Source: a virus. From it: a stretch of 33,399 bases of DNA. This document shows, in pieces, positions 13,909 to 14,777 of this stretch (position 1 is the stretch's first letter; each line of letters starts with the position of its first letter). The translations under genes were made by a program, and so were the position numbers. Below the pieces are notes generated by a model that was given only the letters and a program-made list of their open reading frames with translations, was not told the DNA's origin and did no database searches. The stretch lies in IMG/VR virus record IMGVR_UViG_3300029742_000017; one strand, given 5' to 3'.

Positions 13909-14226
13909 GTGACGGAAAAAGAACTTTATGAAGGACTTTTAAGTCTGGGATATCCTGTTGCTTACAGCCGCTTTGCTGAAGGAAATGTTCCGAATCCGCC
14001 ATACATTGTATATCTTGACCAGGGGAGCACAAATTTTGCCGCCGACGGGAAAGTATACTGGCAGACGGGAGAAGTTGATATCGAGCTGTACTCGAAAAAG
14101 AAAGACCTTGAAGCGGAAGCCAGGATCAAAGGATGGCTTGATCAGAATAAAATTTTTTATAACACAGAGGAATATTACATCGAATCGGAAAAGCTGATAC
14201 AGGTAATATTCATGATTTCACTATAA
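13909..14226 (+). CDS. Tail completion / tail terminator-like protein
   Basis: Position immediately upstream of the major tail gene; AGGAGG SD 5 nt before the GTG. Confidence 0.5.
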   Translation: MTEKELYEGLLSLGYPVAYSRFAEGNVPNPPYIVYLDQGSTNFAADGKVYWQTGEVDIELYSKKKDLEAEARIKGWLDQNKIFYNTEEYYIESEKLIQVIFMISL

Positions 14227-14237
14227 GGAGGTTAATA

Positions 14238-14777
14238 AGGCCTAAAGTAAAATTCAACATCCATGATGTACATTATGCCAAAACAACAGAGAGCGGATTC
14301 GATACACCGGTAGCAGTTCCGGGTGCAGTATCAATCGCACTGGATCAGCAGGGAGAAATCTCGAATTTCTATGCCGATGGAATCAAGTATTATGTATCGT
14401 CCACGAATGGTGGATATGAGGGGGATTTGGAAATGGCATACATTCCGGACTCTTTCAGAACTGATATCCTTGGCGAAGAGCTGGACACAAAAAAAGTCCT
14501 GTTTGAAAATGCAAACAAACCCACCGTGACTTTTGCGTTGGGATTTACTATCGATACCGATACTTCCGAGGAAAAATTCTGGTTCTATAACTGCACGGCA
14601 ACAAGACCATCGGTCAACGCATCGACAAACGAAGACACAAAGACTCCGCAGACGGATACTGTGACAATATCTTGCGCACCGAATTCAGATGGACTCGTAA
14701 GATCGAGAACCACAGCAGAAACTGCTGCAGAAACAAAGGCTGCATGGTATACGGAAGTATATACCAAAGCGGCATAG
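14238..14777 (+). CDS. Major tail protein (phi13 family), proposed AGG start
   Basis: The upstream in-frame extension (x)[47 protein letters not shown] matches the conserved phi13-family N-terminus, but holds no ATG/GTG/TTG before 14421. AAGGAGG 14225-14231, then in-frame AGG 14238 (ATA 14235 is the alternative). Confidence 0.8.
   Translation, partial: [179 protein letters not shown]

Follow-up and report, generated by a model that had tools for sequence, protein, structure and literature searches.

The virus record IMGVR_UViG_3300029742_000017 in IMG/VR is a gut phage sequence of 33,399 nucleotides (nt), referred to here in its entirety as the window. It carries a major tail (tail tube) gene with no canonical start codon ahead of its conserved N-terminal region, and a single transfer RNA (tRNA) gene with the anticodon CCU, which reads AGG. 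With good confidence, we place the start of translation of the major tail protein at AGG 14238, positioned by a strong Shine-Dalgarno (SD) sequence at 14225-14232, with the phage tRNA as the likely reader of this codon. A broader reading, which we favour with somewhat less assurance, is that a family of temperate gut siphophages possesses a natural orthogonal initiation system. A tRNA(CCU), probably charged with formylmethionine (fMet), would read A-AGG at the starts of up to about eight late morphogenesis and lysis genes that have exchanged ATG for AGG, gating the expression of these genes at translation.

The start of the major tail gene

The open reading frame (ORF) called for the tail gene spans 14427..14777. 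As a sequence-only reading of the window had noted, the same frame is open from 14163, just past TAA 14160-14162, and contains about 60 N-terminal codons without a canonical start; ATG, GTG and TTG are absent between 14163 and 14427, where TTG 14427 is the earliest candidate. That reading had also picked out the perfect AAGGAGG at 14225-14231, which reaches AAGGAGGT at 14232 and overlaps the stop codon (TAA 14224-14226) of the upstream gene (13909-14226). From there the tail frame continues with TTA, ATA (14235), AGG (14238), CCT, AAA, GTA, AAA and TTC, and the distance from AAGGAGG is 6 nt to AGG 14238 and 3 nt to ATA 14235, exactly as had been described. Fusion with the upstream gene, or a frameshift from it, is unsupported: a TAA of its own terminates that gene, the tail frame ahead of the SD sequence does not resemble conserved coding sequence, and homologues begin with methionine at this point.

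The long frame had been proposed to encode the N-terminus of a phi13-family major tail protein, and the hidden Markov model search suggested along with that proposal was positive. Against NCBIfam TIGR01603 (major tail protein, phi13 family) the long translation reaches 91.4 bits, where the cut-off is 35.2, and residues 4-178 of the translation counted from 14235 cover profile positions 1-187 of 190; profile position 1 is the K at 14244, two codons past AGG 14238. The 116-residue form of the called ORF scores 38.4 bits, barely above the cut-off, and its match begins at profile position 67. A protein search returned 717 homologues of the tail protein, and when it was aligned with 29 of full length (58-71% identical), the first 62 residues, upstream of 14427, accounted for 21 of the 44 invariant columns. 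The AlphaFold model (predicted local distance difference test score 88, predicted template modelling score 0.85) has six core β-strands formed by N-terminal residues upstream of 14427, and the 116-residue form is left without half of the β-sandwich. The top Foldseek matches in the PDB are tail tube proteins, with probabilities of 0.99-1.0, template modelling scores of ~0.5 and E-values of only ~2e-3. The profile match, invariant columns and core β-strands together indicate that the 63 upstream codons are coding and indispensable. The window protein shares its full-length profile match and tail-tube fold with the phi13-family (TIGR01603) and Phage_TTP_1 proteins, and differs from them in its initiation codon only; it is otherwise an ordinary siphophage tail tube protein.

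The start region of the tail gene is identical base for base in at least five independent assemblies (Logan, ENA and IMG/VR), and exactly the same DNA, AAGGAGGTTAATAAGGCCT, surrounds the truncated tail product in assemblies from each of these sources; sequencing or assembly error is therefore ruled out. Other pipelines made the same truncated call, as seen in cluster P0089, a 96%-identical product of 115 residues with 49 member sequences. In a second lineage, at 59% protein identity, 12 loci read TAGGAGGTATTCTA-AGG-AGT-AAA-GTA-AAA-TTC (GGAGG-TATTCTA before AGG), and a sister genome, L009, carries ATG at the exact codon where these 12 relatives carry AGG. The tail genes of three further genomes (L190, L447 and L448) likewise start at AGG. 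In L447 an in-frame TAA immediately precedes this AGG and so excludes an upstream start, and AGG also directly follows an in-frame stop in the portal and tape measure genes of L448 and in the tape measure gene of the window. These comparative data support the earlier proposal that the tail tube protein starts at AGG 14238, about 63 codons before the called ORF.

The same start appears to have been overlooked repeatedly in public data. Database homologues beginning 'MAYIPD..', 'MHYA..' or 'MKTAE..' are N-terminally truncated forms of the tail protein, and at least 17 of the best 120 tail protein database clusters are N-terminally shortened. All four shortened clusters that were checked at the DNA level (P0089, P0076, P0007 and P0063) have SD-spacer-AGG starts; public tail proteins are truncated because gene callers disallow AGG as a start. 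Among 310 long frames in loci of the AGG lineages, the 5'-most SD sequence serves ATG in 105 and AGG in 69, making AGG the second commonest codon in this position. In other relatives AGG is served in 28 of 1534 long frames, which is background level, so the frequency in the AGG lineages is not due to chance.

A start-codon-agnostic look at the window identified seven further genes in which a strong SD sequence is followed, after 5-10 nt, by an in-frame AGG upstream of the first canonical start (Table 1). The portal, protease and capsid genes start with AGG in all AGG lineages examined, and in dozens of relatives that lack the tRNA the codon aligned with the tape-measure AGG, in a codon-for-codon alignment, is ATG, GTG or TTG (M-A-D/S-R-I). 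The early genes of the window (1-7300) and its minus-strand lysogeny genes start with ATG throughout. Within genes, AGG is used at an ordinary frequency (51 internal codons of 364 Arg-family codons). The corresponding columns in homologues hold mostly R (153), K (92) and other polar residues, not M, L or I, whereas the columns of ATG codons are dominated by M, L and I. Since internal AGG aligns with R and K, any special meaning of AGG is confined to initiation.

The phage tRNA(CCU)

The window's only tRNA, as called by ARAGORN, lies between the gene for a sigma-70 region-4-like protein and the HNH-terminase late operon, and the same order of sigma-70 region-4-like gene and tRNA is found in L191. 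The encoded CCA, which fixes the register in which the tRNA is read, runs directly into the SD sequence of the HNH gene. The acceptor end consists of A1xA72, G2:C71, C3:G70, G4:C69, G5:C68, G6:C67, U7:A66 and A73. Across 11 aligned variants, 14 of 21 pairs show compensatory changes, which support the cloverleaf and indicate that the tRNA is under selection. The anticodon loop, CUCCUUA, is invariant in variants of the class, and position 37, normally a purine, is thus an unusual U throughout. A scan for promoters and terminators around the tRNA gave chance-level results. An inverted repeat at 6615-6629 and 6639-6653 (GACACAAGGATCTCC ... GGAGGTCCTTGTGTC), complementary at 14 of its 15 bases, stops 8 nt short of the tRNA and could be a processing or regulatory hairpin.

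Positions 1 and 72 are unpaired in all 11 aligned variants, in four different ways (AxA, GxA, UxU and CxU), while G2:C71 and C3:G70 are present in 11 of 11 and A73 in 10 of 11. A metagenome scan added ten more variants with a mismatched 1:72, including the canonical CxA mismatch of E. coli tRNAfMet. As a control, 1:72 is paired in 75 of 76 unique phage tRNA(CCU) sequences with the usual CUCCUAA (A37) loop. The window copy has G at position 20, where most variants have U; A20 is found only in the L163 and L177 types. An ordinary elongator tRNA-Arg(CCU) would have a paired 1:72, a purine at position 37 and Arg elements such as A20, none of which the window tRNA possesses.

The closest resemblance is to bacterial tRNAfMet (E. 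coli metZ/W/V), with which the phage tRNA shares the unpaired 1:72, A72, G2:C71, C3:G70, the G4-G6 stem, A73 and C32-U33. Acceptor positions 2-6 and 67-73 of E. coli metZ are identical to those of the window tRNA, and metZ has C1xA72. P-site initiation downstream of an SD sequence, the function of tRNAfMet, would by these features be shared as well. The two differ in the anticodon and the base that follows it (CAU and A37 in tRNAfMet, CCU and U37 in the phage tRNA), in the anticodon stem (three G:C pairs in tRNAfMet against one or two in the phage class), and in A11:U24, which only some of the phage variants possess. Moreover, unlike tRNAfMet, the phage tRNA is phage-encoded and would serve a subset of genes.

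A search of 185,579 species-representative genomes for the exact tRNA pattern gave 10 matches, none of which is the phage tRNA, and a BLAST search of E. coli genomes with the L190-type variant found no match. The nearest matches among deposited phages are a Sulfitobacter phage tRNA-Met and some odd 'Inovirus sp.' records. The latter are small circular entries from pig gut labelled 'UNVERIFIED Inovirus sp.' (MT135284.1, MT135287.1 and MT135291.1), which carry a tRNA that is 78% identical to the window tRNA (2936-3009 in MT135284.1, our L325). It again has G1xA72, G2:C71 and C3:G70, and its anticodon is AGU in a UUAGUAA loop; this tRNA(AGU) may be another initiator-like tRNA for a different codon.

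In two loci of another phage type (L194 1682-2712 and L196 6608-7638), a U37 tRNA(CCU) whose D arm is reduced neighbours a tRNA(UCA) called 'SeC' by ARAGORN and another tRNA whose anticodon has four bases (GAAU); these short loci showed no AGG starts. In L098, a tRNA-Met(CAT) at 837-909 lies 5 nt upstream of an initiator-like tRNA(CCT) at 915-985; its paired G1:C72 marks it as elongator-type or tRNA-Ile2-type.

Reading of the AGG starts and competing explanations

The tRNA class and the AGG starts occur together. In AGG lineages whose contigs reach far enough, a tRNA of this class lies 7-10 kilobases (kb) upstream of the tail gene, and in cases where a flank of 10 kb did not extend far enough, scanning for the pattern located it elsewhere on the same contig, including that of L009. 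No tRNA(CCT) was found in ~45 relatives with ATG starts. Four distant variants of the tRNA (L166, L174, L364 and L414) are each accompanied by four AGG-start genes, located downstream of the tRNA in L166, L364 and L414 and upstream in L174. The pattern scans demanded an exact T-loop and missed variants such as that of L448 (TTCAATC loop), so the prevalence of the class is underestimated.

The context of the AGG codons suggests how they are read. The base at -1 is A in 35 of 44 unique AGG-start contexts, compared with 28 of 92 ATG starts in the same genomes (Fisher p = 1e-7). Mutants of A37 have demonstrated that position 37 of the E. coli initiator tRNA pairs with the mRNA base at -1 (PMC10018350). 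For U37 to match A at -1 is meaningful only when the tRNA occupies the P site on AGG starts. A phage tRNA(CCU) with initiator-type features supplies a mechanism for such starts, a connection that the sequence-only reading had not drawn. The AGG starts are thus probably read by the tRNA at 6661-6734, and not by host fMet-tRNA(CAU).

In the mechanism that we propose, synthesis of the phage tRNA(CCU) would coincide with that of the late transcript or shortly precede it, and the tRNA would then be aminoacylated and formylated. Initiation factor 2 (IF2) would bring it to SD-positioned 30S subunits, where it would pair with A-AGG, U37 contributing a fourth base pair (mRNA A-AGG with tRNA CCU-U37). 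The features of its acceptor end would allow formylation and entry into the P site, while the unpaired 1:72 would keep it from EF-Tu and elongation, such that internal AGG stays Arg. With the tRNA heading the late operon, virion and lysis proteins would be made only when it is present. The amino acid it carries is probably Met, since A73, G2:C71 and C3:G70 are Met identity elements and most variants are without the Arg element A20. The same set of features (A73, G2:C71, C3:G70, no A20) has been taken to indicate Met charging of a tRNA(CCU), and C35 was reported as the least critical anticodon base for methionyl-tRNA synthetase (MetRS) (PMC8629427). Formylation and IF2-dependent P-site binding are likewise proposed from the identity elements. 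That such chemistry is feasible follows from work on an engineered E. coli initiator tRNA(CCU): together with AGG, it ranked first among 12 non-canonical pairs in each of the strains examined (bioRxiv 10.64898/2026.04.16.719103). We speculate that the phage might gain from late and lysis proteins that cannot be translated without the tRNA, silencing leaky transcripts in lysogens; from independence of, or an end to competition for, the host initiator tRNA; or from escape from defences that target tRNAfMet.

Several points weigh against this mechanism. The triple of anticodon-stem G:C pairs is incomplete: the window copy has only G30:C40, and among the 11 variants G30:C40 is present in all, G29:C41 in 7, and 31:39 is U-G in 8. 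A11:U24 is found in 5 of the 11 (the L161, L162, L163, L165 and L177 types), the window copy being among the 6 with U11:A24. C35 is an identity element of arginyl-tRNA synthetase and A35 one of MetRS, so the phage tRNA could carry Arg, and basic residues may be poor substrates for formylation. Furthermore, A at -1 is not universal, with 9 exceptions in the 44 contexts, and kinship among the compared genomes makes them non-independent samples, so that the statistics overstate significance.

The main rival is near-cognate initiation, whereby host fMet-tRNA(CAU), helped by the strong SD sequence, would start at AGG and the phage tRNA(CCU) would be an elongator for a rare Arg codon. AGG and AUG differ at the middle base only, and the native initiator tRNA shows low-level promiscuous initiation at many codons, AGG among them (cited in bioRxiv 10.64898/2026.04.16.719103). 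The 51 internal AGG codons of the window could be served by such an elongator, and an anticodon stem without three G:C pairs would be in keeping with one. However, an elongator offers no reason for 1:72 to be unpaired in all AGG-linked variants and in just 1 of 76 controls, and the match of U37 to A at -1 would be expected of a P-site initiator only. The loci examined give no exception to the co-occurrence of AGG starts and the tRNA; moreover, the most abundant virion proteins, capsid and tail tube, would rest on a very poor start codon. We regard near-cognate reading as unlikely, at a small fraction of the weight we give to the phage tRNA as reader.

The remaining explanations are far less probable still. 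Were the host initiator tRNA to start at ATA 14235 or another nearby non-canonical codon, AGG would be the second codon and encode Arg; ATA is a known weak bacterial start codon, in frame and 3 nt after the SD sequence. That spacing is too short, and in other lineages the codon before AGG is CTA, TTA, GAA, ACA, CCA or a stop (TAA/TAG), none of them a candidate start. Moreover, the ATG of L009 replaces AGG itself and not the codon preceding it. Because the preceding codon varies while AGG is constant, AGG is the common denominator; on this cross-lineage comparison we reject ATA 14235 as the tail start, and we consider any start of this type very improbable. Least probable of all is a host that reads AGG as Met everywhere, to which the phage has adapted, through a sense-codon reassignment like that of certain gut Bacilli (PMC8629427). 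The tRNA(CCU) of that clade shares A73, G2:C71, C3:G70 and the lack of A20 with the phage tRNA, but the alignment of internal AGG codons with R, K and other polar residues, unlike that of ATG codons, leads us to reject reassignment, against which AGG at its ordinary frequency and the ATG starts of early and lysogeny genes also argue. Finally, the locus could belong to a decaying or defective prophage, or be an assembly artefact, with the tail protein either not made or made as the 116-residue fragment. Gene callers do give truncated products only (P0089, 115 residues; P0076, 174 residues). Yet the same T-to-G change of the start codon affects the same set of genes in many diverged lineages, the N-terminal codons are strongly conserved, and the fragment would comprise only part of the β-sandwich. 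The agreement among at least five assemblies and the compensatory evolution of the tRNA, a sign of selection, likewise oppose decay or artefact, to which we assign as slight a chance as to the ATA start. The phage tRNA as reader of SD-positioned AGG codons thus remains the explanation that we prefer.

Relation to known systems and features of the window

To our knowledge, all bacterial translation starts with tRNAfMet(CAU). A full-text literature search for a natural bacterial or phage AGG initiator tRNA found none, returning engineered non-AUG initiator tRNAs and eukaryotic near-cognate initiation, and AGG initiation of an ordinary tail protein appears to be new. Borges and colleagues in 2022 and Ivanova and colleagues in 2014 are said to have described phages, crAss-like and Lak phages among them, that recode stop codons with suppressor tRNAs. 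Such recoding has in common with the present system that a phage tRNA alters the meaning of a codon concentrated in late genes, making late proteins dependent on a phage factor. The two differ in that in-frame stops are there read as sense during elongation, whereas in the window AGG, a sense codon, acts as a start and keeps its Arg meaning within genes.

Engineered orthogonal initiator tRNAs, including amber tRNA(CUA), i-tRNA(AAC) and i-tRNA(CCU), follow the same logic of a changed anticodon and a matching non-AUG codon behind an SD sequence (bioRxiv 10.64898/2026.04.16.719103; 10.1101/2021.05.25.445580). These are laboratory mutants of E. coli tRNAfMet, whereas the phage tRNA is natural, diverged and phage-carried; unlike them, it has a U37 that corresponds to A at -1, and it would serve late genes for structure and lysis. 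In the UBA7642 clade of Bacilli, which read AGG as Met (PMC8629427) and likewise come from the gut, the tRNA(CCU) also has A73, G2:C71 and C3:G70 and is without A20. It is a cellular elongator that inserts Met at all AGG codons, in contrast to the phage system, where internal AGG behaves as Arg and 1:72 is unpaired.

If our interpretation is true, the phage tRNA would be the first initiator tRNA from nature whose codon lies outside the AUG family. It would represent a new variation of the genetic code, in which the start is recoded and not a stop or sense codon, and a new layer of phage late-gene control. A practical consequence is that in AGG-start phages the portal, capsid, tail and lysin genes are cut short or overlooked by gene callers. 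Synthetic biology could draw on these phages for an initiator tRNA and a start codon that form an orthogonal pair already optimised in nature, down to the U37/-1A refinement.

Table 1. Positions in the window of the major tail gene, the tRNA and the other genes with proposed AGG starts
Feature	Coordinates	Strand	Basis
Shine-Dalgarno sequence AAGGAGGT of the major tail gene	14225..14232	+	Read directly from sequence
AGG, proposed initiation codon of the major tail protein, A at -1	14238..14240	+	SD spacing, relatives, TIGR01603
Major tail (tail tube) protein coding sequence (CDS), phi13 family, 179 codons + stop	14238..14777	+	TIGR01603, homologues, AlphaFold
tRNA, anticodon CCU (reads AGG), initiator-like features	6661..6734	+	ARAGORN; Rfam tRNA 49.9 bits
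Sigma-70 region-4-like protein, putative late-gene activator, directly upstream of tRNA	6236..6544	+	Pfam
Portal protein CDS, AGG start (GGAGG, 6 nt, AGG)	9546..10757	+	SD/AGG; AGG in related lineages examined
Prohead protease (Peptidase_S78) CDS, AGG start	10745..11371	+	SD/AGG; related lineages
Major capsid protein CDS, AGG start overlapping protease stop (TAAGG)	11371..12534	+	SD/AGG; related lineages
Head-tail connector-like CDS, AGG start	12873..13190	+	ATG at same codon in 59%-identity lineage (M-K-V-S-E)
Tape measure protein CDS, AGG first after in-frame TAA	15325..18081	+	AGGAGGT, 6 nt, AGG; relatives
CBM5/12-containing tail protein CDS, AGG start overlapping upstream stop (TAAGG)	19912..20598	+	SD/AGG
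CHAP-domain endolysin CDS, AGG start (AGGAGGT, 6 nt, AGG)	22668..23402	+	SD/AGG

The window resembles a complete temperate element. Its genes include a large serine recombinase, a Rep_ORF2/G2P-type replication protein, and PcfK/PcfJ-like and DUF3102 genes, at 24436-26025 (-), 5369-6223 (+) and 1659-3472 (+). No close relative of the window phage was found among deposited phages, in which the nearest tail proteins are 50-55% identical and belong to phages of Lachnospiraceae, Agathobacter, Coprococcus and Blautia; these distant relatives suggest a host among Lachnospiraceae-type Clostridia.

Stop and start codons overlap as TAAGG at two points in the window, 11369-11373 (protease to capsid) and 19910-19914 (the gene at 18917 to that at 19912), an AGG counterpart of the common TAATG coupling motif. 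Two overlapping ORFs (14784-15152 and 15086-15313) separate the tail tube and tape measure genes, occupying the place of the tail assembly chaperone pair, which usually features a programmed -1 frameshift. In L448, one of the AGG-start lineages, an insertion (2962-3583) with a HicA/HicB toxin-antitoxin pair and a Bro-N/ANT gene separates the terminase gene from the portal gene.

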